The translations under genes and the position numbers were made by a program. Shown here one piece after another: positions 1-17,743 of a stretch of 64,000 nucleotides of DNA. Below the pieces are notes generated by a model. The model saw only the letters and a program-made list of their open reading frames with translations. It was not told where the DNA came from and made no database searches. Position 1 is the first letter of the stretch. The number at the start of each line of letters is the position of its first letter. The stretch comes from Dehalococcoidia bacterium (GTDB lineage Bacteria; Chloroflexota; Dehalococcoidia; Lucifugimonadales; JAGWBF01), in NCBI GenBank assembly GCA_965116325.1, contig OZ220675.1, positions 449,138-513,137 on the forward strand. Reading direction: 5' to 3'.

Positions 1-1
1 T

Positions 2-1258
2 GATCTAGCACAAGAATACGGGCCTGTTTTTGCGATCGATCCTCCCTTTGTGAAACCAATGATCTTCTTAGCAGGTCCGAACACAAACCGGTGGGTGCAT
101 AGGCAAGGGCGTATGCACCTGAGAGCCAAGGACTACTTCTCCGACTTCGAGAAAGTATATGGGGCCTCGGGAGTAATGCCTTCTTTGGATGGCGCCGATC
201 ATTTCCGGATGCGGAAGTCCATGTCGGCGGCGTATTCGCGCGGGAGACTGGAAGGGCAGCTGAATATCCTCTACCACCATGCACGGAAGCATATGTCAGG
301 CTGGACGGTTGGAGAATCTCTACCCGCAACTAGGATGAGCCGGCTGATGATCAACGAACAGCTCTCGCCTCTATTCATCAGCGTTGACTCCCAGGACGTC
401 ATCGACGACCTCATAAAGTACAAAGAGAGAGCGTTGATGGTCCATATCATGAAAATGATGCCCAAGTTCATGCTCAACACTCCGAGCATGAAACGTCGGG
501 CCAAAGCCGTTGATACGCTCCTCGAACGGGTACAGAGCACTCACACACCCGCCCAGCGGGCCGATGCTCCGCGGGACCTAGCCGACGATTGGCTCAGCCT
601 TCACACGAGCGACCCGCAGTTCGTGCCGGAAACTACTCTTCGATTCCAGCTCGCGGCAGCTCTGATAGCAAGCGTGTACCTCGGCGATGCCCTGAGTTTC
701 GCCATCTACGCAATGGCCTCGCAGCCTGAGCTATACGGCAGGATCCAGGATGAAGCCGATGCCTTGTTTTCGGACGGGGACCCGGCGGGCGAGGAATTCA
801 ACCTGACTAACATCGACGTCACCCATCGCTTCCTCATGGAATGCCTGCGCATGTACCCCATCGTCCCCATGTCTATCCGAAACGTGATGAACTCATGCGT
901 GGTGGAAGACTACGAGCTGCCGGTAGGGTCGCGTCTCTTCATCGCGACCACGGCCTCTCATTATATGAGCGATGTCTTTCCAGACCCATTCACCTTCGAC
1001 ATAGATCGCTATCTACCTCCGCGCAACGAGCACCATAGCCCCGGGTATGCGCCCTATGGGCTGGGCACTCACACATGTCTAGGGTCCCAGTGGATGAATC
1101 TGCAGCTGGCGGCCAACGTGCTGATGATTGCACATCACTTCAACATCAAGGTGGACCCCGAGAACTATAAGCTAGGTTTCAACCCTATCCCGTCAATGAA
1201 GCCGAACAGGAAGCTGAAATTCCGCATTGCCGAAAAGAGGCGGGAAATAAGCGTCTAA
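2..1258 (+). CDS. cytochrome P450 (5' end outside window)
   Basis: The frame is open from base 2; DLAQEYGPVFAIDPPF precedes the listed GTG at 50, so the gene is truncated by the window edge. K-helix ExxR (ECLRMYP) and heme-thiolate loop YGLGTHTCLG lie near the C-terminus. Confidence 0.85.
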   Translation, partial: DLAQEYGPVFAIDPPFVKPMIFLAGPNTNRWVHRQGRMHLRAKDYFSDFEKVYGASGVMPSLDGADHFRMRKSMSAAYSRGRLEGQLNILYHHARKHMSGWTVGESLPATRMSRLMINEQLSPLFISVDSQDVIDDLIKYKERALMVHIMKMMPKFMLNTPSMKRRAKAVDTLLERVQSTHTPAQRADAPRDLADDWLSLHTSDPQFVPETTLRFQLAAALIASVYLGDALSFAIYAMASQPELYGRIQDEADALFSDGDPAGEEFNLTNIDVTHRFLMECLRMYPIVPMSIRNVMNSCVVEDYELPVGSRLFIATTASHYMSDVFPDPFTFDIDRYLPPRNEHHSPGYAPYGLGTHTCLGSQWMNLQLAANVLMIAHHFNIKVDPENYKLGFNPIPSMKPNRKLKFRIAEKRREISV

Positions 1259-1296
1259 CAGGCTGAGGAACCCCCGATGGTCCCGGGCAAGAAGAC

Positions 1297-2349
1297 TTAA
1301 AGGGGTTTGCGGGCAAGGAAACAGTACAGCGGCGTAAATATCCCGGCCCTACCCCCCTCCACATAGGCCCTAGCGGTCCGGTCCAGCATCCCTATGACAT
1401 CCGCAGAGCCACGGGGACATATCCCAAACGCCCCGGCCATCTTGAATGCCACCCTGAGCATCTGGCGTCCAAAAGGACTCCTTCGCAGGGCGCTCCCCAG
1501 GGTTCCGCCTTGGCTTTCCATGGGCTTGTACCACGGCGTGGCCAGACCGTTCTCATCGATGGACCGGTCCCTTGCCTCAATGACTTGGAATCCTGCCCGC
1601 TCGAGGTCCCGGGGCACCTCATCCACCGTTGCGATGTCCTTGAGCGCAATGCCTTGCATAAGGCCCCGCTTGATGGCTTGGTGTCGCCTGTCTCCGGGAT
1701 CGAACTTATCCGTCATGCACATCTCCTGACCCCAGAAGAGGGCACCGGGTTTCAGCACGCGATAAATCTCGGTGAAGGCGCCCACCTTGTCCGGGGCGTG
1801 ACACGTCGATTCGATAGCGTATCCCCGGTCGAAGGTGTCGTCAGCTATGACATCCATGTTCATGAAGCTGCACGCCAAGTAGTCAACCATGTGGTCGATG
1901 CCCGCCTCGGCATTCAACAATTTAGCCTTGTCCAGCTGAACATTGCTGTAATTGACCCCTACTACCCTGACGCCAGCCTCCCTGACAACGCGGCGCATCG
2001 GGCCGCCGATCCCACAACCTACATCGATGACCTCCATACCCTCGCTCAGCTCCAGCTTGGAAATCATCAATCGCTGGTGCCGGATCTGGGACTCCTCCAG
2101 GCTCTCCAGGGGCGAAAGAGGCGCAAAGTGAAGGGATTCGCTCCAACCGAACACCATGAACTCGCTGCAAAGGTCATAGTATTCTTTGACGGTTCCAGCG
2201 TGATCATAGTCAGCAGAGTCGCCATCCATACCATGCGCTCTGTCCATCCATCCATCGAATCTTCTCACTCGACGGTGGACATCCGACCCACGATAGTCTT
2301 CTTTGAGCCCCTGGGATAGTTTACGGAGTTGCATTAAACCCTTTCCCAC
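1297..2349 (-). CDS. sterol 24-C-methyltransferase-like SAM methyltransferase (ERG6/SMT1 type)
   Basis: SAM motif I is VIDVGCGIGGP. Several blocks match yeast Erg6 as I recall it: YYDL..FGWSESLHFAP, YAIESTCHAP, EIYRVLKPG, MTDKFDP and the C-terminal GIFTPLYCFLARKP (Sterol_MT_C-like). The start lies 2 nt after the stop of the upstream MMPL gene. Confidence 0.8.
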   Translation of the reverse strand: MGKGLMQLRKLSQGLKEDYRGSDVHRRVRRFDGWMDRAHGMDGDSADYDHAGTVKEYYDLCSEFMVFGWSESLHFAPLSPLESLEESQIRHQRLMISKLELSEGMEVIDVGCGIGGPMRRVVREAGVRVVGVNYSNVQLDKAKLLNAEAGIDHMVDYLACSFMNMDVIADDTFDRGYAIESTCHAPDKVGAFTEIYRVLKPGALFWGQEMCMTDKFDPGDRRHQAIKRGLMQGIALKDIATVDEVPRDLERAGFQVIEARDRSIDENGLATPWYKPMESQGGTLGSALRRSPFGRQMLRVAFKMAGAFGICPRGSADVIGMLDRTARAYVEGGRAGIFTPLYCFLARKPL

Positions 2350-2351
2350 GA

Positions 2352-4829
2352 TTAGCTCTGCTCCCGTTCATGTCGGTTGTGCACATCCTCTATGGCCACA
2401 TCAAGGTCAGTCCATATCTGCTCCACCATGGAGCGGAGCCTCATGTTCTGGTAGGCACCCCAGACCACCATGGCAGGCAGCACCAGCAGAATGGCCACTA
2501 TGAGGGAATAAACGATGGTAATGGTCGCCGTGATGCCGAATTGCTGGGACGCCAGCAATGGTGAGGCAATCAGAACACCGAATCCGAAGGCTGTTGTGAG
2601 CGCGGAGCCCAGCAGCGCCGAACCCGTGGTTGCCAGCGTCTGAATGGCCGCCCTCTCCGGATTGCGCATCCGGGCGAACTCCTCCCGGTAGCGATGGATG
2701 ATGTGGATCGTGTAGTCCACCCCTATCCCTATGGACAGGGCTGTGATGATGGACGTGATCAGCGTGTAGGGGATGCCCAGGAGAGCCATCGTACCCAGTA
2801 CGCTAATGAGGACTAGCACGATGGGGCCGACGGCAACGAACCCCAGCGCAGGCTGGCGCAGCGTCACCCAGAAAAAGACCGCTAGGACGACGAAGGCCAC
2901 GGCAATGGTGGTGCCGATGGCTTCCGTTTGGCCGCTCTTGATCTGGTCTGTGACGGTAACCGCGACTATGGTCTCCGAGGTCACCGTGACCGCGCTGTCG
3001 TCCCCTTGCCAGAGGGCCTCTATGTCCGCCTGGAGCATCCTCGATTCCACAGGGTCGTCCTGGAATGTCGGGAACTGGAGCAGCATCGTATCGACGCCAT
3101 TGGGGTTGTTGATCAGGGAGTGCGCCAGGCTGGGTTCTCGTGCGATGAGCTTATCGACAAACTCCTGCATCAGCTCCGGGTGCAGCTGCAAATCAGAGGA
3201 GGCTTCCGTGAATAGGGCAGCCAACTCAGGGTCATAGTTGTCACCCGGCTCTCCGCTGTCGTTGATCCAGTCCCGTGCGGAAAGCTCGAAGGACCCCTGA
3301 ATCGGACCTGCAGCCGCGGGCGGACGGGTAGCTTCATCTTCGAATGCATTCGTAATGTCCCGTAGATTGAGGAGTGTGCGGCTTTCCGTGACTTCTGCCT
3401 TGATCAGCAAACTGGCAAGCTCAGTCGAGCCACCGACCGATGCTTCCAGCGTGTTCATGTCCTCCAGAACACTCCCACCTCTAGGCAGGACATCCTGAAT
3501 ACTGAACTCCGACTCCAACCCGGTCGCAGCATACCCAAGGGCAACCGTTGCAAGCAAAACTGCGACGAGGCTGGGCACCGGCCTGCGGGTCACCCATCTC
3601 CCTAGGAGCTGGGCCGCCTGTGGAATGCCGGGGAGGGCGTTTGAGATGGGCCGAGCGGGAGACAGAGCACCGCGGGCTTCCCGCCTCCGGTCGATGATCA
3701 TCCGGGCAGCAGGTAAGAGGGTTAGCATGACGATCAGGCTCATGCCTACGCCCAACCCCGCGACGATGCCGAAGTCGCCCACAACCCCGATGGGCGAGAA
3801 CAGGGTGGCCAAGAGGCTGACGATGGTCGTGACGGCAGCCAAGGTCAGGGGGACTGTAACGGTTCGCAGTCCGTTCCTGACTGCTCCTACCACGGGCTGC
3901 CCCTCTACTCGCTGTTCCCGGTAGTGGGAGACCGTCTGGATCGCATAGTCAACCGTCAGGCTGATAAGGATGACTGGCACCATAGCAGTGAGGGAGCTGG
4001 GAGGCCCTATCAGACCTATGGCGTTGGGGCCAAGCCAGCCTTCCGCCCCGATGATCCAGACCAACGAGATAATGAGTCCCCCCAGAGTGAGCAGCATGTC
4101 GGAAAGAGTGCGGGTGAAAAGCAGGAGCAGGGCCGCAATTAGTAGCAGGGCAAGGCCGACGAGCGGCGCCATGCCGCTTTCCGTCGCTTCCTTGTACTCA
4201 TCCTCGATGACCACTGGGGACAAGCTGCTGACATCCAGCGACCCCTCATGCTCCACGGCAAGCTCGTTGATGCTACGTTCAGCATCCTGAATTCGATCGT
4301 CGCCCGTATCCCGCAGCCGTATGTTGCCAATGGCGACCATGGTCCCGTCCGTATCGGTGCCGGTCAGGGCAGACAAGGCGCCCTGAATCTCCGGGATGCT
4401 GCGAACAGAGTCAATCTGCTCCTGGGTAATCGACCCAAGGTCGTCCCATTGGAGCGCAGCGCTGATAATGGACGAGGGCGCTATGACTGCATTCGACGGC
4501 GCCAGCAGTTCGCTTACGCCTGGATCGCTGACGGCGTCATTGATCAGGATAGCCATCTGGGAGAGGCCCTCAGGTGTGAGAGGATCTCCTCGGAAGAGCA
4601 ATGTTACGACCCTGATGTCGCCCGAGTCGCTGAAGGACTCTTCGATTTCGCCGGTCGCTTCGGCGATGGCATGTCCGGGAGGAAGGAAGGCTATGTCGGC
4701 CCCCTCGGTTGGCGGCGCGCGCCGGGCAGCACCTGCGGCCAGCACGACGGTGACCAAGAGGAGGACCAGGATCGTGACGTATGGACGGGCTGTGACCAGC
4801 CAGCTCAACCGATCAAGTAGGTTGTTCAT
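2352..4829 (-). CDS. RND-superfamily MMPL/HpnN-like lipid exporter
   Basis: 825 aa with two hydrophobic multi-helix bundles, each preceded by a large soluble loop. An MMPL/SSD-like GVDYTIHIIHRYREE lies in the C-terminal bundle, and the N-terminus is a typical MMPL anchor helix. Confidence 0.8.
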   Translation of the reverse strand: MNNLLDRLSWLVTARPYVTILVLLLVTVVLAAGAARRAPPTEGADIAFLPPGHAIAEATGEIEESFSDSGDIRVVTLLFRGDPLTPEGLSQMAILINDAVSDPGVSELLAPSNAVIAPSSIISAALQWDDLGSITQEQIDSVRSIPEIQGALSALTGTDTDGTMVAIGNIRLRDTGDDRIQDAERSINELAVEHEGSLDVSSLSPVVIEDEYKEATESGMAPLVGLALLLIAALLLLFTRTLSDMLLTLGGLIISLVWIIGAEGWLGPNAIGLIGPPSSLTAMVPVILISLTVDYAIQTVSHYREQRVEGQPVVGAVRNGLRTVTVPLTLAAVTTIVSLLATLFSPIGVVGDFGIVAGLGVGMSLIVMLTLLPAARMIIDRRREARGALSPARPISNALPGIPQAAQLLGRWVTRRPVPSLVAVLLATVALGYAATGLESEFSIQDVLPRGGSVLEDMNTLEASVGGSTELASLLIKAEVTESRTLLNLRDITNAFEDEATRPPAAAGPIQGSFELSARDWINDSGEPGDNYDPELAALFTEASSDLQLHPELMQEFVDKLIAREPSLAHSLINNPNGVDTMLLQFPTFQDDPVESRMLQADIEALWQGDDSAVTVTSETIVAVTVTDQIKSGQTEAIGTTIAVAFVVLAVFFWVTLRQPALGFVAVGPIVLVLISVLGTMALLGIPYTLITSIITALSIGIGVDYTIHIIHRYREEFARMRNPERAAIQTLATTGSALLGSALTTAFGFGVLIASPLLASQQFGITATITIVYSLIVAILLVLPAMVVWGAYQNMRLRSMVEQIWTDLDVAIEDVHNRHEREQS

Positions 4830-4960
4830 GCCGTATCCTTCGATCTAGGCAGGCACGAGAAGATGAAACTTCAACCTCTCGTCTCCCATGATGTGAATCA
4901 TCGCCTCCGCAACTGATAGCAAATTTAGTCTGCCTACTCTCCCATGTTCGGCCCGAGAAT

Positions 4961-6037
4961 TCATTGCGCAGGAACGCTCGTGGCATCCCGCAGCAGATGT
5001 TGCGATTCCTCCCCGGCCTCATAGAACTGGGCGCAATATGCTCGAAAGGGCATGATCTCCCCATCGGAGCGGCACAGGCGTGGGCGGGACCGGTAGCCCT
5101 TAAGGCTCCAAATGGCCATGTCCTGCCTAACGTCGTTGTCCTGCTGGGCCGCCACAAACCGGTTCATCAAGGGTGCACGGAACCTTGTTGGAAGGAAACC
5201 CAACCCCATAGTCCATCGCTTGGGGTTACGTATCTCCTTGACCTGAGTAGCCAGGGATAGGTCGATGTGGGTTCCATCGACGGGCGTGGCGAGCACCCAG
5301 AGCCTCAAATCCATTCCTATGGAACGCTCGTGAATCTGGACGAAAGAGTAGCCCAAGCCAAAGATGCGGGTCTTGGCGGAGATGTCCATGGTGAAAGTTG
5401 CAACCTTGGCAATCTTGCGGATGGTCTTGAAATCGAAATTGCTCTCCAGATATGGCCCGTCCACGTAGATGCGCCCGACGCGGCTTACGCTGTCATAGCC
5501 GTGAACGTAACGCAGGTGTGCCAGATCCACCGAGTTCTCCGTGGTGTCCTGGGGATGACCCGGGAATCGCATCGTCCTGACGCGTATGCTGCTCCAGCCG
5601 GACTGTTCGACGGGTTCGGCAGGCAGAGTCCATTGGACCGGACGTCCCCCGATGCCCCACCATGCAAAGATGAGACCAGCGATCTCCTGGGTCTCGAAAG
5701 TTCTCAGCCTGGCAGTCTTTGGGGGGTCGGCATATGGAGTAGCAACGCACTGGCCGGTGGTATCGTATTCGAAGCCGTGGAAAGGACACACAAGCTGTCC
5801 GCCCCGCACGAAACCCCCTGCGTCGGGGCCCAGGTAAGCCCCGAGGTGAGGGCAGTAAGCCTCGGCCACGCAAACGCTGCCGCTTCCGTCGCACCATGCG
5901 ACGACGTTCTCTCCCATCCAGGTCTTTGCAAGAACACCGGCCTTCAGTATGTGCTGACGGCTGGCGACAAAGTACCATCCTTCGGGAAACGCGGACGGCA
6001 GCTGCTCTTTCTCAGGCTTCCGTCGCTGGATCGACAT
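4961..6037 (-). CDS. Rieske [2Fe-2S] non-heme iron oxygenase, KshA/Neverland/SdmA-like
   Basis: Rieske ligands CPHLG...CPFHG and the mononuclear iron motif E-x3-D-x2-H-x4-H (ENSVDLAHLRYVH). I start it at ATG 6037 (ggtgaggagtctcaagcgATG). The listed 715-aa ORF extension overlaps the MFS gene in another frame. Confidence 0.8.
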   Translation of the reverse strand: MSIQRRKPEKEQLPSAFPEGWYFVASRQHILKAGVLAKTWMGENVVAWCDGSGSVCVAEAYCPHLGAYLGPDAGGFVRGGQLVCPFHGFEYDTTGQCVATPYADPPKTARLRTFETQEIAGLIFAWWGIGGRPVQWTLPAEPVEQSGWSSIRVRTMRFPGHPQDTTENSVDLAHLRYVHGYDSVSRVGRIYVDGPYLESNFDFKTIRKIAKVATFTMDISAKTRIFGLGYSFVQIHERSIGMDLRLWVLATPVDGTHIDLSLATQVKEIRNPKRWTMGLGFLPTRFRAPLMNRFVAAQQDNDVRQDMAIWSLKGYRSRPRLCRSDGEIMPFRAYCAQFYEAGEESQHLLRDATSVPAQ

Positions 6038-6150
6038 CGCTTGAGACTCCTCACCCGGATATTGGGTTTCCAATGCCTCCCGCCCATCCCTTCCGGTTGA
6101 CTGCACTCTAGCACGCCCCATTCTTGAGAGGCAATGAAGTGGTTGCCCAC

Positions 6151-7614
6151 TTAGTCGAACCTTTCTCCTTCCTCCGTCTCTTCTATCCTCATCAGAAGAG
6201 CCGGAACAATGGCGACCAAAGCGAGGAACCCGGCGATCATGAACAGGTTCTGAAAGACGGTCACCCCCGCCTCTATAAGCGGGGCCTGGGTCTCTTCGAA
6301 GGTGGGCCCGATGGTCACATGGGCGGTCAAGCTGTAGAAGCGCTCGATGCCCCACGCAGACAAGGCTGCCAAACCCAGCGCCATACCCACCATCCGAGAT
6401 GCGGTGACCAGCGAAGCCGCAGTACCCCAGTAATAGCTGGGGGCTGCGCTCAAGGCGCTGACACTTATGGGCGGGATGACCAGCCCAAACCCCAAGCCGG
6501 CGGCGGCAAGAGGCACAGTAAGCCTGACCTCCTCCACCTGAGCCTCCCAGCCGCTCATGAAAAGCAGCCCCGTGCCCATGAAGGCCAAGCCGGTTATGCA
6601 GGCCGCCCTTACTCCCGACCAACGCAGGATGTAGCCTCCCACCACCGCCCCCACCGGGATGGCGGCCGTAAGTCGGACCAGGTGGAGGGCGCTTTCCAAG
6701 GCGCTCTTCTCCATTACCGTTGCGGCCATTACAGGCACAGCCACCAGGGCAATGATAAGGGCAACTCCCACCAGGAACTGGGCGATGTTGGACGACACGA
6801 AAGCCTTTGACTGGTACAGGAAGGCCGCCAAGAGGGGGTGGGCCGATCGCCTCTCCACAATGATCAGCACCAGGACCAGGAACCCGCCAAGGGCAGCCAT
6901 CAGGTACGGGAGCACAGACTCTCCCGAGAAGATGCTCCTCTGGGACAGGGCGATGGTGAGAACGGTCAGGGCGCCGGCAAGCGCCAGGGCCCCCGGGTAG
7001 TCCATCCTGGCTGCAGGATTGGCTCGGTTCGGCAATATGCCCAGCAGCGCAATCAGGATAAAGCTCTGGGGTATGTCCAGCCAGAAGATCCATCGCCAGC
7101 CGATCCATTCTATGATGCCCCCTCCGTAGAGAGGACCCAGTACGGACCCGGCTTCCGCCGAGGCAGCCACCAAGCCCAGGGCGACTCCCCTTCTTTGCGG
7201 GGCGACGGCCGCCACGGCCAGGGCCAGGGCTATGGGCACCGTGGCCCCGCCGCCGGCAGCTTGAATAACGCGGGCGGACACTATCCAGGAGAAGTCCGGT
7301 GCTACGGCCACCAGCCCTGAGCCGATGGAGAACACTACCAGGGCCGCCTGGAACATCCTGACCCTGCCATAGACGTCGGACAGGCGTCCCGCCAGCGGCA
7401 TGGCCACCGTGTAGCTAACGAGGTACCCCACCACGATCCAAGATGCCCTGTCCAGGTCGGTGAGGGGTATCTCCAAGTCCACCATCACGCTGGGCAGGGC
7501 TGCGACCACCACTGTTTGGTCTAGGGCCGTCGAGAATACGCCCAGGCAAAGGATGGCTAAGACGGCGGTCTCTGAGGAACGCAGAGAAGCTAGCGTGGAC
7601 CTGCCGGCATTCAC
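6151..7614 (-). CDS. MFS transporter, 14-TM DHA2 type (P55/Rv1410c-like)
   Basis: 487 aa, hydrophobic throughout with about 14 helices. An MFS motif-A-like GRLSDVYGRVRM follows TM2. The gene sits 41 nt downstream of an LprG-like lipoprotein gene. Confidence 0.8.
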   Translation of the reverse strand: MNAGRSTLASLRSSETAVLAILCLGVFSTALDQTVVVAALPSVMVDLEIPLTDLDRASWIVVGYLVSYTVAMPLAGRLSDVYGRVRMFQAALVVFSIGSGLVAVAPDFSWIVSARVIQAAGGGATVPIALALAVAAVAPQRRGVALGLVAASAEAGSVLGPLYGGGIIEWIGWRWIFWLDIPQSFILIALLGILPNRANPAARMDYPGALALAGALTVLTIALSQRSIFSGESVLPYLMAALGGFLVLVLIIVERRSAHPLLAAFLYQSKAFVSSNIAQFLVGVALIIALVAVPVMAATVMEKSALESALHLVRLTAAIPVGAVVGGYILRWSGVRAACITGLAFMGTGLLFMSGWEAQVEEVRLTVPLAAAGLGFGLVIPPISVSALSAAPSYYWGTAASLVTASRMVGMALGLAALSAWGIERFYSLTAHVTIGPTFEETQAPLIEAGVTVFQNLFMIAGFLALVAIVPALLMRIEETEEGERFD

Positions 7615-7655
7615 GCTAACAACTCAGGGGGAGAATTCAGCCCCGGCATGTTCCG

Positions 7656-8405
7656 CTACTGGGAGGCTGATTCCGGGAGCTGGATATCGATGACGACGTT
7701 GGTCTCCTCGATGACGATCAACCTCCTAGTCTCCGGAGCGTCATCGTTGAAGACTTGACCTGTTATTCTCAGCTGTTTCAAGTCGTGGTCCACTTCGTCT
7801 ATCCAGAAAGACAGCATCACCGCGTGCCCGGGGTCTGTGGACGTGATCAGTTTGGAGAGGTCCTCAGACTGCAAGGAACCCTCCAGCAGGATCGTCTGGG
7901 AGCCGCCAACGGACTCCCGTCCAACTTTCCTGGCATCCTTGAGCAGGGGCACCAGTTCGCTCAGGGTAACGCCCATCCCCTTAAAGTTAAATGGAACTTC
8001 ATCCAAGGACAGGGGGAGCCACGGAGCATCCCTGGAGAACTTCATCAGGGACTGGTCTCCGACGGCCACAATCTCGATTTCGATAAACCCGAAAATCGGA
8101 GACTCCACGTCCACAGCCATCCTCATGCTGTCGGAGGCGCTGACCTCCCCTTCCACGCTCTTCAAGGTCGTGTTGAAGAACTTGGACCCCGTCTGCAGCT
8201 CGTCGGTCATCCGGAATTTCACCGAGGAGATGGAGGCTAATCTTTCCTGCGCGTTCGCAAGAAGCTCATCCACCGTCAACTCGGTGGGAGTGGGCTCTTC
8301 GCCACCTCCACACGCCGCCGCCAGCACAAACAGGCCAACTGCCAGCACGCCCATCGCAAGGTAGGACAGCTTCTTGAACGTTACGTTAAATACTTGCATT
8401 TGCAT
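7656..8405 (-). CDS. LppX/LprAFG-family lipid-binding lipoprotein (LprG-like)
   Basis: Signal peptide with the lipobox-like sequence VLAAAC-GGG. The mature domain of about 220 aa resembles mycobacterial LprG as recalled (LLANAQERLASISSVKFRMT, GGSQTILLEGSL, LSFWIDEVDHDLKQLRI). Gene order matches lprG-Rv1410c. Confidence 0.65.
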   Translation of the reverse strand: MQMQVFNVTFKKLSYLAMGVLAVGLFVLAAACGGGEEPTPTELTVDELLANAQERLASISSVKFRMTDELQTGSKFFNTTLKSVEGEVSASDSMRMAVDVESPIFGFIEIEIVAVGDQSLMKFSRDAPWLPLSLDEVPFNFKGMGVTLSELVPLLKDARKVGRESVGGSQTILLEGSLQSEDLSKLITSTDPGHAVMLSFWIDEVDHDLKQLRITGQVFNDDAPETRRLIVIEETNVVIDIQLPESASQ

Positions 8406-8722
8406 TTCTCCATCACCCTGGGGTGGAGGGATGCCAGAATCTCGCTAGGTATTATACTACCGCCCAACCCAACACACTTGCCCTAAAAGAGACTCCCAGG
8501 AACAGGAGGAAAAGGAAGATTCAGGGGGACGGCTCTGGGCGGGCATGCCCGGGGCACGCCCCATTCAGAACCTGCTGGGAGCGCCGCTATGTGCAGGGTT
8601 GACCCTCGCAACGAACCATTCACCACAAAGCCTTCACGAGATCCAGGGCCGGGAGAGCCGAGCCAGGATATGACCACCTGGCAGAGAGAAGTGCAAAAGT
8701 CTAGCTAGCTAGCTATGCAAGA

Positions 8723-8756
8723 CCACAGGGGCAGGGTATTCACCCTGCCCCTGTGG
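8723..8756 (-). terminator. perfect 15-bp-stem palindrome downstream of the 8777..10651 gene
   Basis: ccacaggggcagggt-attc-accctgcccctgtgg. There is no strong U-tract. The same 26-nt core recurs at 15442. Confidence 0.45.
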
Positions 8757-8776
8757 TTGAGAGACTCGCCAGGTTC

Positions 8777-10651
8777 TTATTCGCAGGGTTCCAGCCCCAA
8801 GCTGTTGAGGTCGTGGTCGTCCACATAGTACAAGAATCGTGGGATGCACCCTGTGAAGGTGTTGCCCGACAGCTTCAGGCTGGTCAGGGTTTCCACCTTA
8901 GCAAAGGGGGCTGGGAAAGCCCCAGCCAAGCCCACATCGGTGAGGTCCACGCCTGTCACCCGCAGGACACCATCCACAACATCTATGGAGACTCCCCTCT
9001 GCCGATCCATGCCTGAGCCGGGGTTCCACCTTGTCTGACCCACATTGCTCAAGGGAAGGACACCGTCGATGAGCGCTTCGCAGTCTATGAGCAGGTTATC
9101 ATCAACGGGATCGGCATAGATGTACACATTTACCGCATCATCGCAGAAGCCCTCGGCGGCAGCGTTGTCTGACCTTGTGCGCTCGGCAGGGTCGTCCGGG
9201 GCTACCGTGATCCTCAGCATCAGTTCATCACCAGAGGACCAGGGCTTGCTACCGACGTCCCAGGTCAGGGTGCCCTCGGAGCTGTCGCCGGTGGCTGCAT
9301 CGCCTGTGAGAGACACAGATGCCGTCCCATCCCCTGTGATCACCTCCAAGGTGTAACTATCGAGGGCGTGGTACGGGTCAAGGGACAGGGTGACGTTGCT
9401 GGCATCACCCGTGAGGGCGGTGATCGAGGTGGACACGTTGCCCACAACCACCGTGAAGTCGGTGGCACCGAGGTCGCCCGTGCTCACATCGCCCGAGCTG
9501 ATGTACCCGTCGCCGCTCCCGATTGTCTGAGGGTCAAAGAGGGCCTCAAGCACCGTCCAGGCAGGCGCTTCCTCCACCTCCACCTCCCAGTTGAGGCCGA
9601 CCAACGGAGAATCCCTGTAATCGCAGGCAAGGAAGAAGTGGGACTGGATGTAGCTCTTGAACTTGTAGGTCCCGGCCGGCAGAGGGCGGGTGTTCTCAAA
9701 GGAGAAGGTGTAGCCGTTGCTTGGGTCGGAGTCGGCATCCACCAGCCGGACCCTGAACAAGCCTGCATCTGCCCCTGTCAGCGCCCGTTTCTCATAGACT
9801 GTGTGATTCTCCCCGCCCCCATACTGGTCTACGGCTGTTCCTGCGGGTGCCGAGGAAGGCAGGGATGCGGTAATCGTATCCGGCTCCCAGGGCGTTCCAT
9901 AATAGACAGCTACGTCCCTGCCGGCCCGTTCTGTCCTGAGCGCCTGCTCCACGCAAGACTCATAGGCTGCATCCCCGTCCCCTCCCCCAATCCAAGCTAT
10001 GAGACTCTTAAGGTCGGACAGGCTGATGGTAGGGTTCCTCTCACCATAAGGGGATTGGGTTTCTATGATGAATGAGGGGTCGCTTTCTTGGGCCGACCCG
10101 CCGGCGGCCCCCCCAGCCCCGCCTGTGGCGGTTGAGGGCATCCAGACCGGATTGCGGGTCTCGATGGAGTTTCCTTCGGGAAGCGCCCCTTGGTAATCGT
10201 ACCTGCCGTCTCCCAAAGAAGTGGTGTCGGCAAAGGCGTAGCGGGGAGGTCCACCGGTGCTGCTACCGCCAACCCCCGAGTCGTCGCCTGCCGGGGCCTC
10301 CGTGACAGGGCCATCAAGGAACAGCAACGCTTCCCTGCTGTCCCACCTTGTGGTGCGCCCTGATTCGGGAGCCTCCAGGGTGAAGCGGGTCGGGCCTGTA
10401 CCCTTCAGGTACTCAACAGCATCGAAGGTCAGAGTCCCGTTCCCGGTGGACGCCAAGTTCGCCCGCACCACAATGGCGGCGGCGTGGATGCGCTCCTCCA
10501 GCGATGCGGTGGAAGCCCCGTCGTAGGAAGTGTCAATGTACATCGTGAAGCTGCCCGGCGACTGCAGATCCTCATCGGAATCCGACCCACAGCCTGCCGT
10601 TATGAGCAGCGCCAGAAGCAGAAGCATGGACCCTAGAACGTATCGCATCAC
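8777..10651 (-). CDS. secreted lipoprotein of unknown function with C-terminal LRR-cap-like motif
   Basis: Signal peptide plus lipobox LITAGC. The C-terminus LKLSGNTFTGCIPRFLYYVDDHDLNSLGLEPCE matches the C-cap of the LRR paralogs at 29.8-39.5 kb. Confidence 0.6.
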   Translation of the reverse strand: MMRYVLGSMLLLLALLITAGCGSDSDEDLQSPGSFTMYIDTSYDGASTASLEERIHAAAIVVRANLASTGNGTLTFDAVEYLKGTGPTRFTLEAPESGRTTRWDSREALLFLDGPVTEAPAGDDSGVGGSSTGGPPRYAFADTTSLGDGRYDYQGALPEGNSIETRNPVWMPSTATGGAGGAAGGSAQESDPSFIIETQSPYGERNPTISLSDLKSLIAWIGGGDGDAAYESCVEQALRTERAGRDVAVYYGTPWEPDTITASLPSSAPAGTAVDQYGGGENHTVYEKRALTGADAGLFRVRLVDADSDPSNGYTFSFENTRPLPAGTYKFKSYIQSHFFLACDYRDSPLVGLNWEVEVEEAPAWTVLEALFDPQTIGSGDGYISSGDVSTGDLGATDFTVVVGNVSTSITALTGDASNVTLSLDPYHALDSYTLEVITGDGTASVSLTGDAATGDSSEGTLTWDVGSKPWSSGDELMLRITVAPDDPAERTRSDNAAAEGFCDDAVNVYIYADPVDDNLLIDCEALIDGVLPLSNVGQTRWNPGSGMDRQRGVSIDVVDGVLRVTGVDLTDVGLAGAFPAPFAKVETLTSLKLSGNTFTGCIPRFLYYVDDHDLNSLGLEPCE

Positions 10652-10660
10652 ATCCTCCTA

Positions 10661-12376
10661 TTAGTGGTGTATTGCTGCCACTGCCCGTAGGCCGAATATA
10701 TCCTCCCTGGCGGGAAAGGCGCTGGTGTAGCCCTCGAAGTTATTGTAGCCCCCCTCCATCACACCCATCCCCAAGGGAATATGCCCGACACCTGCGGAGT
10801 GTAGGAGCTCGTGCACCAAGACCATCGGGAGATAGTATTGGGTCAGGGGGTCCTCCCGGGCCTCATTCCTGGAGCTGGTCCATTCGGTGACATCTCCAAA
10901 GTAGCCTCGCGGAGGGAACTGGATGTGCACATCCAGTAAATTGAAGTGGGGGAAGCGTGCAAGTCCTATCTTGGTGCAACCCACAGGCCTTTTGCCGTTC
11001 TCAGTCCCCCGGCAGGGCGGAAGCTTCTTATCCCCCCGGTACCCTCGCACCACCACATTCCAACCCACATCATCGGCGAAGGTGAAGCCCGTCCCTCCCG
11101 TTGTAGCATCAAGGGCCGTCTGCGCAATTCTCAGGGACTCGGCGGCTGTCGTCAGGTCCGGGATTTCAATGATCTCCCAATCGCGAGTCCAGTCTGCATG
11201 ATAGGTCACGGCGCGGTTCTTGTGATGCCAGTTCACAGGAATAACCCCGTTCACATCGAACTCGTACGTCTTGCCTGTTCTCTTGTGCTGGGCCTCAACG
11301 ACCATGCTGCCACCGGGGTACGAACCCAAAGCGCACCTGGCCAGGGTCATGCCTGTGACCTTCTTGGTCAGCCAGTCCGTCTCCGAAGAGAACCCATCAG
11401 CACACCCTTGGCCTTTCTCGATGAGGTACATTCCAGTGTTCCAAGGGTTGGTGTTCAGCTTGAACTTGAAGTCCGTGAACCTGTGGCTGAACCGGTCCTC
11501 CCTCTCATTGAGAAGGTCAAGGGTCAGAGTGGCGGGACTCTGCTCCAGCATCATCCAGCGACGGGCGCTCATATCCACAGTCCAGGAACTGTTGATGTCC
11601 AGCACCGTAATCGCTGCCTCGAAACGCGGAGGCGCTACCAGGAGAGGCACCGGAGTGTTCGCAGGTCTGCGAGTGTTCGTGGGCCTGGGAGTGTCCGTTG
11701 GGTCAGGGTCCCCATCATCGGGAGTAGCGGTCGGCCCAGGTGTGTCGGTCGGCACCGGCGTTTTCGTGGGCCTGGGCGTCGGAGTCAGTACGCAAGCGAC
11801 GCACGGCGTCGGGGGCTTAGCGGTCGGCGTCGGAGGCTCAGCGGTCGGCGTGGGCTGACACTCGCTTGTGCCAGGGCATGGGTCTTGAGTCGGCTCCGGT
11901 GTGGGTGAGGGAGTCGGTTGGCATGTCGGTGCAGTGTCCGAGGACCCGCAGGGCTCCAATGTCGGCTTCTTCTTGAACTTCACCGTTACCGAATCCGAGT
12001 TGCTGTTGTCGCAAAACTCTCCGCCACGCTCGGCAGTGACCGTGATGGTGGCTGTGTAGGTCCCTTCCGAGGTGACAGTTCTGCTCTTGCTGGTGTTCCC
12101 ATCATTCCATTCGAAGCTGTGATGCAGGAAGTGACCGCCCGGCATCGTGACCGTGGAGTGGGTGGCGCTGATCCTGGCGCTGCTCGTGGTCACATTGGAT
12201 ACCGATGCTGAGATAGTCGGCCTGGGCGGTGTTTCGCACGCCCATTTCTCCCACTCCCCGTCCCCTTCCGCCGTCACAGGCGGGGGATACAAGTCGGGTG
12301 TGGCAAGGCCGATGATAAGAAAGACCACCAGCCCTAAAAGCAAACAGGGCACACAGTCCATCCATGAAGCAGGCAC
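10661..12376 (-). CDS. membrane-anchored metzincin-like zinc metalloprotease with PKD-like domain and Pro/Thr-rich linker
   Basis: N-terminal TM helix, a long PT-rich linker, and a C-terminal HELLHSAGVGH (HExxHxxGxxH) followed by GMGVMEG, a possible Met-turn. It lies 10 nt upstream of the 8777..10651 gene. Confidence 0.6.
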   Translation of the reverse strand: MPASWMDCVPCLLLGLVVFLIIGLATPDLYPPPVTAEGDGEWEKWACETPPRPTISASVSNVTTSSARISATHSTVTMPGGHFLHHSFEWNDGNTSKSRTVTSEGTYTATITVTAERGGEFCDNSNSDSVTVKFKKKPTLEPCGSSDTAPTCQPTPSPTPEPTQDPCPGTSECQPTPTAEPPTPTAKPPTPCVACVLTPTPRPTKTPVPTDTPGPTATPDDGDPDPTDTPRPTNTRRPANTPVPLLVAPPRFEAAITVLDINSSWTVDMSARRWMMLEQSPATLTLDLLNEREDRFSHRFTDFKFKLNTNPWNTGMYLIEKGQGCADGFSSETDWLTKKVTGMTLARCALGSYPGGSMVVEAQHKRTGKTYEFDVNGVIPVNWHHKNRAVTYHADWTRDWEIIEIPDLTTAAESLRIAQTALDATTGGTGFTFADDVGWNVVVRGYRGDKKLPPCRGTENGKRPVGCTKIGLARFPHFNLLDVHIQFPPRGYFGDVTEWTSSRNEAREDPLTQYYLPMVLVHELLHSAGVGHIPLGMGVMEGGYNNFEGYTSAFPAREDIFGLRAVAAIHH

Positions 12377-12434
12377 AATTCCCTCCCGTCTAGGCCCCGG
12401 AGAGGCCTTGAGTAGCTAGGCGACGGGAGATTAT

Positions 12435-12472
12435 CACAGAAAACTTTCGGGAACTATATACTTGACGATCCT
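12435..12472. repeat. left terminal inverted repeat of the IS1595-like element
   Basis: CACAGAAAACTTTCGGGAACTATATACTTGACGATCCT. The outer 8 nt and inner 24 nt are identical to the reverse complement of 14725-14760. Confidence 0.8.
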
Positions 12473-12932
12473 AAATCGTTCCCCTAGATACGAACCTCTG
12501 AAACTCGCCCTGGTCAAAGACGTGTAGCAACAGGTTCTTTCCGGCCTGTCCCTTCAGCCACATTTCCGCCCCTTTGGAGTAGCCCCCGCCGTCCAGCACA
12601 ACGATAGTCTGGTACCCGCCTTGCTGGATGTTCAGAACCTCGAAGGGGTACTTCTCATGCACGGTCCCGCCCGATGCTTGCCACTTGCACTGAATGACCA
12701 GGGCCTTCTCCCACTTCCGGGGATGGTAGAGGATGAAATCAACGCGACGTTCTCCGCCGTAGATGTTCCGCCCAACGATGCACTGGCGAGCATAGACGGG
12801 CTGACTGAGCTCTCGCATGGCAAAGAACAAGCTAGAGGGCCATATCGGTTCATAGCCGGCTTGCTGGAGAAGGTCTTCAACGAACCGCTCCAGCTTGTTG
12901 CCCGTCCTGTTGGCCGATACCTGCCTAGCCAT
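12471..12932 (-). CDS. putative type II restriction endonuclease (PD-(D/E)XK-like)
   Basis: 153 aa. A candidate catalytic core is ERRVDFILY...ALVIQCKWQ (D...QxK variant). The start overlaps the methylase stop by 8 nt, and the stop lies inside the left IR. Confidence 0.45.
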   Translation of the reverse strand: MARQVSANRTGNKLERFVEDLLQQAGYEPIWPSSLFFAMRELSQPVYARQCIVGRNIYGGERRVDFILYHPRKWEKALVIQCKWQASGGTVHEKYPFEVLNIQQGGYQTIVVLDGGGYSKGAEMWLKGQAGKNLLLHVFDQGEFQRFVSRGTI

Positions 12933-13770
12933 AGGTCGTAATCAGCAGTTCGCTTGCTGTCCCGCGCCCGTTGGTCTTGCAGTTGATATTCCTGGGTGCA
13001 GCAACATCGTGGATGATGAAGGGTGGGTTTCCGTACAGGCTGCGCATAAGCTCTGTGTCGGCGTTTGAAACCATCACCGAGGCGCCCAGCTTGTGCCACT
13101 TCAAGACAGCGTTCCTGAGTCGCCTCTGCTCATCCTCGCCGAAGCCGTCCTTCCCATAGCCTGCGAAAGTCCCATCGTAGGGGGGATCGCAGTAGATGAA
13201 GTCCCCACCACCAGGCTCTAGCTTCTCGAAGTCTCCGAAGGTGACGGTCGCCTTGGATAGCACCTTCCCTGCTTGGCGGATGTTCTCGGCGTCGCAGATG
13301 ACGGGATTCACATACCTGCCGATGGGAACGTTGAAGGCCCCGCTCTTGTTCACCCGGTACAGGCCGTTGTAGCAGGTCTTGTTCAGGTAGATAAACCTGG
13401 CTGCCACATCTACCGCAGCCTCTAGCCCAGTCTGTTTGCGCATCTGGTAGTAGTACGCCTTCTGGTGCTTCTGCTGGTGGTGCTCCAGGGAGGCGATCAG
13501 ATCCTCGGCTCGGTTGCGGACCATCTGGTAGGTCAAGGCAAGCTCGGCGTTCACATCGGACAACCGGGCCGATGTGATACGGCTGTCCAGGGCAAAGAAC
13601 ACAGCCCCTCCACCAAGGAAGGGCTCCCAATATGTCCCTAGGTCGTCGGGCAGGCGCTGGGCGATCTCTGGAATCAGTGTCCGTTTCCCCCCCGCCCACT
13701 TCAGGAACGGCTTGGCCCTGGCCCTAGCCAAGTACGGCTTCTCCGTGTGCTCCAGGAACCTATCGAACAT
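12925..13770 (-). CDS. DNA N6-adenine methyltransferase, Dam family
   Basis: FLKWAGGKR, FLGGGAVFF (FxGxG) and the catalytic DPPY (IYCDPPYDG). Confidence 0.9.
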   Translation of the reverse strand: MFDRFLEHTEKPYLARARAKPFLKWAGGKRTLIPEIAQRLPDDLGTYWEPFLGGGAVFFALDSRITSARLSDVNAELALTYQMVRNRAEDLIASLEHHQQKHQKAYYYQMRKQTGLEAAVDVAARFIYLNKTCYNGLYRVNKSGAFNVPIGRYVNPVICDAENIRQAGKVLSKATVTFGDFEKLEPGGGDFIYCDPPYDGTFAGYGKDGFGEDEQRRLRNAVLKWHKLGASVMVSNADTELMRSLYGNPPFIIHDVAAPRNINCKTNGRGTASELLITTYG

Positions 13771-14716
13771 TGGCGATCAGCTCCTTGTAGGGTAGGTGTG
13801 CGGCAGGGAGCATCCCGCTTGTCAGAAGGGCTGTCGATTCACCGCCTCGGGCAACGTTCTGACGGAAGGAGCAGGCATCCAGGTACTTCTGCGTGTGCTT
13901 GCGACTCCACCAGTGGTGCGTTCCTACAAAGGTTCGCTTCACCAGGGACCAGAAGCTTTCAACGCTGTTGGTGGTGATGCCGTCCCTGCTGTACTCGCCT
14001 TGGGAGTGATTGATGCGGGAGAGCTTGTAGAAGCCTTCCAGGGCATTGTAGCTGTGGCTTTCGTCAGCGTTCAGATGAGAGCCGAGGGCGACGTTGCGGA
14101 TGACATGGCCGGTTACGTGCTCGGCTGTCGGGCTGGGAACCTTGTACGCTTTGACCGCCCCGCCCCTTTGCTTCATACCGAAGGCCACGGCCTTGGTCTT
14201 GGAGGAACCGAGGCCCTGCGTGCCAGAGGTCCGCTTGCTAGCGTGCTTGTTCTTCTCTTTCCCGCCGATGTAGGTGTCGTCTATTTCCACGTCGCCATCC
14301 AGCATGATGTCCACTCCCATCAAGGCTGCGGCGTTCTGGATGCGCTGGATCATGTACCAAGCCGTCTTTTGGGTAACCTTGATGTCGTGGGCTAGCTGGA
14401 CGCTGGAAATGCCCTTGCTGTGCTCCGTCACCAAGTAGACCGCTGCAAACCACTTGGGCAGCATCTTGATTGGGCTGTCGGAGAAGATGGTGCCGGTGAT
14501 GATGCGGAACACCCGCTTGCAGTCCGAGCACTTGTGCCGTATGCCGTCTGTGTAGTGCTGTATCTTCCCGCAGCTACCGCAGTGGGGGCAGAAGGCCCCG
14601 TTAGCCCAGCGCACAGCCTCAAGCTGTTGAAGGCAGGCTTCGGGGGTGCTGTACTTCCTGGTAAACTCTAGTAGGCTCACTGCTACACTCCGTTCTTGAT
14701 ATTGGGAGTATAGCAC
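13760..14716 (-). CDS. IS1595-family transposase
   Basis: N-terminal zinc ribbon CPHCGS...KCSDCKRVF, followed by an ISXO2-like DDE domain (VEIDDTYIGGKEKNKH). The stop overlaps the methylase start by 11 nt. Confidence 0.85.
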   Translation of the reverse strand: MLYSQYQERSVAVSLLEFTRKYSTPEACLQQLEAVRWANGAFCPHCGSCGKIQHYTDGIRHKCSDCKRVFRIITGTIFSDSPIKMLPKWFAAVYLVTEHSKGISSVQLAHDIKVTQKTAWYMIQRIQNAAALMGVDIMLDGDVEIDDTYIGGKEKNKHASKRTSGTQGLGSSKTKAVAFGMKQRGGAVKAYKVPSPTAEHVTGHVIRNVALGSHLNADESHSYNALEGFYKLSRINHSQGEYSRDGITTNSVESFWSLVKRTFVGTHHWWSRKHTQKYLDACSFRQNVARGGESTALLTSGMLPAAHLPYKELIANVR

Positions 14717-14724
14717 ACATTTTA

Positions 14725-14760
14725 AGGATCGTCAAGTATATAGTTCCCAAACTTTCTGTG
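14725..14760. repeat. right terminal inverted repeat of the IS1595-like element
   Basis: The reverse complement reads CACAGAAAGTTTGGGAACTATATACTTGACGATCCT. It lies 9 nt upstream of the transposase start. Confidence 0.8.
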
Positions 14761-14872
14761 GCCAGAGCTTGCCCAAAATCCACCGCCCGGATGCCGGCGC
14801 AGGCAATTGGGCGCTGGAGGATGGGTGTGCTATAGTCGGTGAGCACCGTCCACCCTACCAAGGAGGCCCCCT

Positions 14873-15412
14873 ATGCGCATACTGCTGGCGGTCCTGTTGC
14901 TGACCACCCTGGCCCTCACAGCCTGCGGAGGAGAACCGGAACACCCCGAACTCAAGGAGTCCAGACAGATAGCAGAGAAGTGGCTCAAGGACTTTCCAGA
15001 CCTGAACCTGCACACCGGCGTCTACAGCAACCCCTTAAACCGGCTTGAATACGATGAGCACCCAGCCCTTCCCGATGTGATCTACGAGTCCGCCGCTGTG
15101 CGGGAGTTCCGAAGCCAACTCCCTGCCGAGCGCAGGACTGCCCTTGAGGAGCAGATCTATACGTTCCTGTGGAAAGAGCTGTTCCGCCATGTGTCCATCA
15201 AGATCACCAATGTGGAGCTCAGCTATGGCGGAGGCGACGGTCTGGTCACCGCCACGGTCGCCGGCGACATGACCATTGACCTGGAAGAGCACCCGCCCCT
15301 CCGGCTGGATGTATCCGTACCTGTCATGATGCTTGTGAGCACGTTCATTGATCTGGTCCTGAACTGGGCCTACGACGACGACAATATCGTGGTGGCCATC
15401 AACGACCAGTAG
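14873..15412 (+). CDS. lipoprotein, unknown function
   Basis: Signal peptide with lipobox LTAC-GG. A GGAGG lies 7 nt upstream of the ATG, and a hairpin terminator follows the gene. Confidence 0.6.
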   Translation: MRILLAVLLLTTLALTACGGEPEHPELKESRQIAEKWLKDFPDLNLHTGVYSNPLNRLEYDEHPALPDVIYESAAVREFRSQLPAERRTALEEQIYTFLWKELFRHVSIKITNVELSYGGGDGLVTATVAGDMTIDLEEHPPLRLDVSVPVMMLVSTFIDLVLNWAYDDDNIVVAINDQ

Positions 15413-15441
15413 CTTCTAAGCTGTCCACTGAGCAAAAGAGA

Positions 15442-15471: not shown

Positions 15472-15516
15472 GACGGCCCTTCCCTTTCGGGAGCGTCGTA
15501 TCCTTTGTCGGGCTCA

Positions 15517-17737: not shown

Positions 17738-17743
17738 AGCGTC

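Follow-up and report, generated by a model that had tools for sequence, protein, structure and literature searches.

Gene content of the locus

We analysed a stretch of 64,000 nucleotides (nt) from a Dehalococcoidia bacterium (GenBank assembly GCA_965116325.1, contig OZ220675.1, positions 449,138 to 513,137), called the window below, and describe six genes at its left edge. They encode what is probably the P450 half of a fusion between a GPP34 domain and a cytochrome P450, a member of the sterol methyltransferase (SMT) family, a resistance-nodulation-division (RND) transporter, a Rieske oxygenase, a major facilitator superfamily (MFS) transporter and an LprG-like lipoprotein (Table 1). This region is the right-hand two thirds of an 11–13 kb module that is conserved in Dehalococcoidia/SAR202 (Chloroflexota). 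The gene content suggests that the module probably serves late sterol tailoring, on the side chain and on the ring, together with dedicated lipid transport.

Domains were called by Pfam profile scans, and NCBIfam equivalog cut-offs were also applied; solved matches are matches to proteins of known structure. An earlier note on this DNA, made from its letters alone, had listed five minus-strand open reading frames (ORFs) with intergenic gaps of 41 nt (LprG-like/MFS), 113 nt (MFS/Rieske), 131 nt (Rieske/RND) and 2 nt (RND/SMT). We find its coordinates to be exact, and the genes called independently on a reference contig with 87% nucleotide identity to the window (L081) agree with them, their products having 247, 487, 358, 825 and 350 aa in the same order. 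The Pfam searches also upheld the family proposed for each of the six genes. The 3' end of the SMT gene faces the 3' end of the fusion gene across a convergent gap of 38 nt. A 715-aa ORF at 4961-7108 shares DNA with the MFS gene in a different frame, and the gene called on the reference contig encodes 358 aa; we therefore dismissed this ORF as an artefact of overlapping frames.

The Pfam scan of the window covered non-overlapping ORFs of about 280 aa or more, with about 12 ORFs of 150–300 aa (39.7–63.1 kb) lying outside it. Among the scanned ORFs there is no oxidosqualene cyclase or squalene epoxidase, and within this scope the absence of both enzymes claimed in the earlier note holds.

Table 1. 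Position of the module genes and of further features in the window
Feature	Position	Strand	Evidence or remark
P450 half of predicted GPP34-P450 fusion	1..1258	+	C-terminal 418 codons; p450 111.6 bits (Pfam)
SMT-family SAM-dependent C-methyltransferase, 350 aa	1297..2349	-	Sterol_MT_C 56.6 bits and class I methyltransferase domains (Pfam)
RND transporter, MMPL/HAE3 type, 825 aa	2352..4829	-	MMPL 148.5 bits (Pfam)
KshA-like Rieske non-heme iron monooxygenase, 358 aa	4961..6037	-	Rieske 57, KshA_C 74.8 bits (Pfam)
Rv1410/P55-like MFS transporter, DHA2 type, 487 aa	6151..7614	-	MFS_1 131.9 bits (Pfam)
LprG/LppX-family lipoprotein, 249 aa	7656..8405	-	LppX_LprAFG 29.9 bits, gathering score 24 (Pfam)
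Insertion of 11.35 kb	8485-19837		relative to L081 and L001
ORF in insertion	8777-10651		no family match
ORF in insertion	10661-12376		no family match, weak PKD
Dam-type N6-adenine DNA methyltransferase	12925-13770		in insertion
IS1595-type transposase	13760-14716		in insertion
DDE_Tnp_1 transposase	15656-16876		in insertion
Collagen-repeat protein	18172-19029		in insertion
Phospholipid scramblase family protein	23058-23657		PF03803, 140 bits
Short-chain dehydrogenase	23784-24695		adjoins scramblase-family gene
Repeat-protein block	28139-33569 and 37500-39479		one RCC1/tectonin and four leucine-rich-repeat proteins
Single-chain hybrid, 836 aa	34838-37348		GAF, histidine kinase, receiver and OmpR-type DNA-binding domains

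Conserved neighbourhood across genomes

The window SMT has more than 2,000 close homologues, and a collection of genomes at species level contains 319 relatives. Of these, the 80 top-ranking ones, all from metagenome-assembled genomes (MAGs) labelled Dehalococcoidia, SAR202 or Chloroflexota, served as SMT-seeded loci, 71 of them with full 10-kb flanks. Within 10 kb of the SMT gene, the GPP34-P450 fusion is present in 62 of these 71 loci, the RND gene in 61 and the Rieske gene in 55; a flavin oxidase occurs in 38, MFS and LprG-like genes in 23 each and an ERG4/24-family reductase in 8. RND and P450 occur together in 60 loci, 53 of which also have the Rieske gene. The RND and SMT genes are direct neighbours in 64 of the 80 SMT-seeded loci. 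The outer flanks hold unrelated housekeeping genes, among them those for PPK2, gamma-glutamyltranspeptidase, formate-tetrahydrofolate ligase, amidohydrolases and a giant FG-GAP protein. As the partners recur whereas the outer flanks differ, the neighbourhood does not result from chance, and the earlier grouping of these genes stands as a conserved neighbourhood.

Two members were missing from the module as first described. In the three closest relatives (L081, L001 and L003), an ERG4/ERG24-family reductase gene lies just past the fusion gene, in a position to the left of the window. The best solved match of this reductase is a delta-14 sterol reductase (4quv, E 2.9e-38). In many relatives the cluster further includes a flavin amine-oxidase-family protein similar to LkcE and PAI, whose nearest solved structures are LkcE and a fatty-acid isomerase.

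The fusion protein was the seed of a second, independent sampling. A search of 241 million metagenome records yielded 78 loci, 46 of them on contigs of at least 12 kb. On these 46 contigs we found the Rieske gene 31 times, the MMPL-type RND gene 23 times, SMT 22 times, the flavin oxidase 15 times and the LprG-MFS pair four times. Wherever the source of related sequence could be identified, it was a sponge metagenome or a sponge MAG; among the fusion-seeded contigs, the prefixes LXNJ01, LXNI01 and JGIcombinedJ30088 stand for sponge metagenomes. In nine fusion-seeded loci an AcrB-type RND protein replaces the MMPL type, accompanied in six by an HlyD-type adaptor (e.g. L149 5283-8492, L102 5578-6795), and a GMC oxidoreductase is present in three.

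Tight coupling is limited to the RND and SMT genes. The Rieske gene has two alternative sites, one upstream of RND and the other past the P450 gene, and only about one third of the loci contain the LprG-MFS pair. These arrangements point to sub-units rather than the single operon envisaged in the earlier note, so that co-transcription of all five genes would be doubtful. Our scan for promoters and terminators gave fewer matches than shuffled sequence and thus says nothing about operon structure.

A looser arrangement can also be imagined, in which only RND, SMT and P450 belong together, the LprG-like and MFS proteins form an independent exporter and the Rieske oxygenase is unrelated to the rest. 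The rarity of the LprG-MFS pair (just 23 of the 71 SMT-seeded loci and 4 of the 46 contigs from the fusion seed) would agree with such neighbours without shared function, as would the gaps of 113 and 131 nt, which could hold separate promoters. The position of the Rieske gene varies between genomes, and SAR202 genomes hold many oxygenases of this kind. Nevertheless, the LprG-MFS pair, where present, is always found next to the module, with three or more different arrangements and both orientations represented (L001, L004, L018, L038), and the Rieske gene never leaves the cluster and is the most frequent partner of the fusion (31 of 46 contigs). We therefore consider it unlikely that these genes are mere neighbours.

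The GPP34-P450 fusion

The reading frame of the P450 is open from base 2 of the window, and the gene thus extends past the window edge. Window base 1 aligns to position 11669 of L081, which lies within a gene at 10412-12451 and corresponds to about codon 262 of the 679-aa orthologue. By this alignment, the first approximately 261 codons, including the GPP34 domain, would fall outside the window. In the orthologues, one ORF of 670–725 aa encodes both domains, GPP34 (91 bits) at the N-terminus and p450 (127 bits) at the C-terminus. Intact fusion orthologues are present in 62 of the 71 loci, with protein identities of 61–90% to the window gene. The P450 gene that had been described as converging on SMT is thus present and convergent, but what had been treated as a complete gene is, as its orthologues indicate, probably a fusion of GPP34 and P450 that the window edge cuts.

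The heme motif YGLGTHTCLG is intact in the P450 domain. Its best solved relatives are CYP725A4 (72 bits), the CYP51s (about 47–63 bits), CYP120 and CYP4B1, with overall scores of about 60–72 bits. We rejected an identity as CYP51, as CYP51 scores no better than CYP725A4, CYP120 or CYP4B1; since the domain is equidistant from these families, we describe it as a eukaryote-like P450. No Sec signal peptide is apparent on inspection of the fusion protein. The GPP34 domain is probably a peripheral membrane anchor for the P450, in place of a transmembrane anchor.

This fusion has been published as GPP34_L, a GPP34-P450 protein that is exclusive to sponge symbionts, with 656 proteins, and that occurs in 80% of sponge Dehalococcoidia MAGs (Microbiome 2025;13:4, PMC11706023). 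The authors proposed that GPP34_L is a secreted effector that binds phosphatidylinositol 4-phosphate and blocks phagosome maturation; the words sterol and methyltransferase are absent from their main text (PMC11706023). By its intact orthologues, the convergent gene described here is most likely this same fusion, of which only the P450 half lies in the window. It differs from the published description in that it is set in a sterol-type gene neighbourhood and has no visible Sec signal peptide.

Sharing with Dadabacteria

A related arrangement was found on a sponge metagenome contig from Dadabacteria (L084, 3462-16135). In this locus, an RND gene (MMPL and sterol-sensing domain) is followed by a LolA-like TP_0789 gene, SMT, a gene for a 448-aa putative outer-membrane protein and a second SMT, and the order continues with ERG4/24, GPP34-P450 and the flavin oxidase. 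The locus looks like a diderm version of the module. Between SAR202 and Dadabacteria, protein identity is 75% for the ERG4/24 reductase, 74% for the flavin oxidase and 57% for the fusion, compared to 40% for SMT and 23–27% for RND. With identities of 57–75%, the reductase, the fusion and the oxidase are therefore horizontally shared as a trio, whereas SMT and the transporter belong to each lineage. Dadabacteria have been predicted to possess a complete de novo sterol pathway (PMC8237579).

The sterol methyltransferase

The window SMT aligns with verified yeast ERG6 (NP_013706.1) over 332 aa with 34% identity (206 bits, E 9e-68), which is in the same range as bacterial SMTs with demonstrated activity (35–42%). 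The Sterol_MT_C domain (PF08498) covers 63 of 66 profile positions. In the S-adenosylmethionine (SAM)-binding Region II, the pattern DxGxGxxGP is present as DVGCGIGGP, and D125, G127, G129, G132 and P133 are found in all members of an alignment of 119 SMT clade members. Region III, YAIE(A/S)TCHAP, reads YAIESTCHAP with E195 in 119/119, and Region IV of the window protein contains LKPGA, with G217 in 118/119. All five residues that are essential in yeast (H90, D125, G129, P133 and E195) are present in the window SMT.

The window SMT belongs to a clade that we encountered only in MAGs labelled Dehalococcoidia, SAR202 or Chloroflexota. The nearest relatives outside the clade have about 40% identity and comprise proteins from Acidimicrobiia including 'Ca. 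Poriferisocius', proteins from Dadabacteria MAGs, a rice protein and a protist protein. The 'Ca. Poriferisocius' relatives carry the NCBI name sterol methyltransferase, and the rice relative is annotated as cycloartenol-C24-methyltransferase 1-like. The contigs of the Dadabacteria relatives belong to the ENGE20-1 metagenome series, which we take to be from a study of the sponge Ircinia ramosa. As a family call, the ERG6-type SMT of the earlier note is borne out by the ERG6 match, the Sterol_MT_C domain and these outside relatives, among them the SMT1-like rice protein. The top NCBIfam match was a sarcosine/dimethylglycine N-methyltransferase (66 bits, cut-off 550); this identity was rejected because of the Sterol_MT_C domain and the full-length homology to ERG6.

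The substrate pocket shows a different picture. In place of the Region I sterol-binding motif 84-GWGxxFHF-91, the window SMT has GWSESLHF. Using the list of 25 residues conserved in functional SMTs from a preprint by Brown & Welander (2025), we find 22 of the 25 in the window SMT, the deviations being T78S, G86S and F89L. F89 is present in every functional SMT tested in that preprint, and no Chloroflexota are named there (Brown & Welander 2025). Several pocket changes are fixed in the clade, namely Y81M, usually E82V, and F89L in Region I, and T219L and Y223Q in Region IV. Across the 119 clade members, M81 is present in 119/119, L89 is invariant, S86 occurs in 51/119, and L219, Q223 and I249 (118/119) are essentially fixed. 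The window protein is thus, as judged by its residues, an SMT family member with a systematically different substrate pocket. These fixed changes, including F89L, mean that the substrate or the position of methylation may differ, or that the clade may be inactive on standard substrates.

The main rival to a sterol role follows from this pocket. The substrate could be squalene, a carotenoid, a hopanoid-like triterpenoid or some other isoprenoid or membrane lipid that is not a sterol, and the SMT-like protein would then be a triterpene or lipid methyltransferase. A precedent exists in Botryococcus, where SMT-like enzymes methylate squalene and botryococcene. Besides the clade-wide replacement of pocket residues in Regions I and IV and the loss of 3 of 25 functional-SMT residues, the searches for a cyclase speak for this reading. 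No cyclase was found among the scanned ORFs of the window or in the 10-kb surroundings of SMT in the 80 loci seeded on it, and no cyclase-like family is among the recurrent gene families examined in the 78 fusion-seeded loci. The flavoprotein, with LkcE and the fatty-acid isomerase as nearest solved structures, likewise belongs to an amine-oxidase/CrtI-like superfamily. On the other side, an ERG4/ERG24 reductase with a match to a delta-14 sterol reductase (E 2.9e-38) travels with the module, and in Dadabacteria, for which sterol production is predicted, the trio is accompanied by two SMT genes. In addition, the five yeast-essential residues and Sterol_MT_C are intact, and the outside relatives at about 40% identity include the SMT1-like rice protein. 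Given this evidence, we judge a non-sterol substrate to be rather improbable, and regard a sterol as the probable one.

Two further sets of SMT genes were observed in other surroundings. In L027, L050, L052 and L055, an SMT homologue with 72–73% identity (at 10001) lacks the usual partners and lies beside sarcosine-oxidase-like, DAO and carboxyltransferase genes. In L082/L083 (4585-11026; an Acidimicrobiia MAG contig, VXQS01000009.1, and an ENGE20-1 metagenome scaffold), an SMT of about 37–41% identity is part of a different gene set that contains a TetR regulator, a PhyH dioxygenase, a plain 407-aa P450, a SnoaL-like protein and a DUF1295/steroid-reductase-like protein.

The Rieske oxygenase

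In the Rieske protein, the CPH-x19-CPFH cluster and the mononuclear iron motif ENSVDLAHLRYVH (E-x3-D-x2-H-x4-H) are intact. Its top solved matches are KshA proteins with about 80 bits, and it groups best with KshA rather than with aromatic-ring or carnitine oxygenases, in agreement with the steroid type assigned earlier. We rejected an identity as SdmA, which scored 35.7 bits against a cut-off of 600 and covered the Rieske part alone. There is no SdmB-like gene in the cluster, and no KshB-type reductase gene is among the recurrent neighbours of the SMT-seeded loci. Compared to KshAB and SdmAB, the protein shares the Rieske cluster and the KshA_C catalytic domain with intact metal ligands, but it is distant from both (only about 80 bits to KshA and 35.7 to SdmA) and has no adjacent KshB or SdmB.

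The relationship to KshA raises the question of a steroid catabolic cluster, in which host steroids would serve as a carbon source after being opened or oxidised by the P450 and the KshA-like oxygenase. In favour of this are the match to KshA, the closest among solved structures, and proposals that SAR202 bacteria degrade alicyclic compounds; for deep-ocean SAR202, a steroid-degradation route has been put forward (PMC5790920). Genes for KstD, Hsa, FadD/FadE or thiolase are, however, not conserved in the 80 SMT-seeded loci, and hsaC was found in no Chloroflexi (PMC5790920). Moreover, the SAM-dependent methyltransferase and the ERG4/24 reductase are enzymes of a biosynthetic type. A catabolic role thus appears very improbable to us, and like the assembly of unrelated neighbours discussed above it is less likely than the non-sterol substrate.

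Transporters and lipoprotein

The stop codon of the RND gene lies 2 nt from the start of SMT. Pfam detects MMPL (PF03176) in two stretches, one in each half of the RND protein, as well as Sterol-sensing (50.9 bits) and Patched (37.1 bits). All NCBIfam scores are below their cut-offs (in brackets): HAE3 TIGR00921 214.5 (351.9), HpnN 110 (751.85) and 68.7 (1100), and BstA 32.5 (1400). The best solved matches are the sterol-sensing region of PTCH1, followed by HpnN, MmpL5/3 and NPC1. By these scores the protein is not an orthologue of BstA or HpnN, and HAE3/MMPL is the closer family. In the BstABC system of Methylococcus capsulatus and in the case of HpnN, as here, the gene for an RND protein of the inner membrane is linked to genes of cyclic triterpenoid metabolism; the differences are that no BstB or BstC homologues were seen here and that the RND proteins are not orthologous.

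For the MFS transporter, the best solved match is 8pnl, a 'putative triacylglyceride transporter' homologous to Rv1410/P55 (E 2.3e-56, 195 bits). The next match, EfpA, scores about 100 bits, approximately 95 below 8pnl, and TIGR00711 scores 173 bits. The P55-like character that the earlier note gave to this protein is thus well founded, the Rv1410/P55 homologue being closest by a wide margin. The lipoprotein has a signal peptide and the N-terminus ...VLAAAC32GGG, in which Cys32 is invariant. A profile of 15 orthologues matches LprG (3mh8) with E 2.6e-6 and LprF with E 0.03. Its gene is located 41 nt upstream of the MFS gene and adjoins it wherever the MFS gene occurs in the loci.

The LprG-Rv1410c pair of mycobacteria has the same layout, with the lipoprotein gene directly upstream of the MFS gene, and both partners match. 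The lipoprotein described here is very divergent (a search with the single sequence gives E 0.03), and the host belongs to the Chloroflexota, which have no mycobacterial envelope. In mycobacteria the cargo of LprG-Rv1410c comprises triacylglycerides and lipoglycans.

A candidate pathway for sterol modification

The families, motifs and linkage described above suggest the following order of events in a late sterol-tailoring module. A sterol with an unsaturated side chain would reach the cytoplasmic membrane, either from a separate cyclase-CYP51-ERG24 operon or from the host or neighbouring symbionts. The SMT-family enzyme would then move the methyl group of SAM onto the side chain, and the ERG4/ERG24 reductase would saturate the new double bond. 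Subsequently, the P450, anchored to the membrane through the lipid-binding GPP34 domain fused to it, and the KshA-like Rieske oxygenase may hydroxylate or desaturate the sterol; in many relatives the LkcE/PAI-like flavoprotein may act as well. Finally, the RND transporter with its sterol-sensing-like bundle and the LprG-like lipoprotein with the P55-like MFS protein would shuttle the lipid between membrane and cell surface. The product could be intended for the symbiont's own membrane, for supply to the host or for manipulation of the host. The genes, their families, the intact motifs, the linkage across genomes and the sharing of part of the module with Dadabacteria are thus shown, whereas the substrate, the regiochemistry, the direction of transport, co-transcription and the purpose are inferred.

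Several observations weigh against this proposal. The substrate pocket of the SMT clade is altered, and about 8 of the 71 loci hold an SMT homologue without any partner. The P450 matches CYP51 no better than unrelated terpenoid P450s, and no genes for redox partners were seen. Sterol-sensing-domain matches are common among RND-type membrane bundles in general, and are therefore of little weight for the transporter. Furthermore, no NCBIfam equivalog cut-off was reached for SdmA, BstA, HpnN or another named function. Weighing both sides, we favour late sterol tailoring with dedicated lipid transport as the probable function. The core of the earlier interpretation, a unit for sterol tailoring and trafficking, is thereby retained, whereas the operon claim, the boundaries of the P450, the missing members and the degree of novelty needed correction.

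A more far-reaching version is that the SMT clade carries out unconventional side-chain alkylation, for instance at C-26, C-27 or C-28, and together with the GPP34-P450, the Rieske oxygenase and the exporters passes 'sponge-type' sterols to the host. We propose it because M81, V82 and L89 of Region I and the Region IV residues lie where mutations in the yeast enzyme permit extra methylations, and we consider it a long shot. If it were true, the sterols used as biomarkers of Neoproterozoic animals would have abundant Chloroflexota symbionts, and not sponge cells, as a source, and the GPP34-P450 would act as an enzyme on sterols instead of being a phagosome effector.

Comparison to published sterol systems

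Sterol gene clusters have been described in sponge symbionts before. Kelly et al. (2022) reported ERG24-CYP51-LSS operons in sponge MAGs of 11 classes including Dehalococcoidia, and an enrichment of SMT (PMC9531527). Since some sponge Dehalococcoidia MAGs possess such cyclase operons, a separate de novo sterol supply to the module is plausible. In vitro, bacterial SMTs from sponge metagenomes were shown to use desmosterol as a methyl acceptor (Brown et al. 2023, PMC10070321). The published clusters (PMC9531527, PMC10070321) share with our module the habitat, in part the taxa including Dehalococcoidia, an ERG6-family methyltransferase and evidence of horizontal transfer between phyla. They are built around a core of cyclase, CYP51, C-14 reductase and SdmAB, none of which lies within 10 kb of the module described here; the latter instead combines SMT, RND, GPP34-P450, the KshA-like Rieske oxygenase and the flavin oxidase, and sometimes the LprG/P55 pair.

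Late sterol enzymes outside a full pathway are known from other host-associated bacteria. The delta-24 sterol reductases of Coxiella are sterol-modifying enzymes in a bacterium that makes no sterols. Similarly, the SMT of Chlamydiae is a late sterol-pathway enzyme in a host-associated bacterium with no cyclase nearby (PMC10070321). Both examples concern single genes, whereas here we find a multi-gene module with transporters.

The earlier note knew of no described system that unites these parts. This is too strong, as the SMT clusters (PMC9531527, PMC10070321) and the fusion (PMC11706023) have been published separately; a paper that joins sterol clusters with the GPP34-P450 fusion was not found in the literature searched, and in this respect the claim stands. 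Thus, three separate threads meet in this locus, namely bacterial SMTs that make sponge biomarkers harder to interpret, sterol operons transferred horizontally in sponge microbiomes, and the GPP34-P450 fusion. By placing the fusion among conserved neighbours that include SMT, lipid transporters, a sterol reductase and a Rieske oxygenase of the steroid type, the locus suggests an alternative function for it. The host belongs to one of the dominant bacterial groups in sponges of high microbial abundance. The module is a candidate route for the modification or export of sterols by symbionts, which bears on the origin of unusual sponge sterols and biomarkers.

Other features of the window

The remaining window contains housekeeping genes (ilv/leu, gyrB, methylmalonyl-CoA mutase) and many eukaryote-like genes, which encode four leucine-rich-repeat proteins, an RCC1/tectonin protein, a collagen-repeat protein and a scramblase-family protein (Table 1). 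Such eukaryote-like repeat content is typical of sponge symbionts, and the repeat-protein block fits a host-associated lifestyle. The gene for the phospholipid scramblase family protein, which is eukaryote-like, lies near the module and is adjoined by a short-chain dehydrogenase gene. A further gene encodes a hybrid that combines sensor kinase, receiver and DNA-binding domains in a single chain.

Compared to the orthologous regions of L081 and L001, the window carries an insertion directly upstream of the lipoprotein gene. This insertion includes two transposase genes, a Dam-type DNA methyltransferase gene, the collagen-repeat gene and two long ORFs without a family match, one of which shows a weak PKD similarity.

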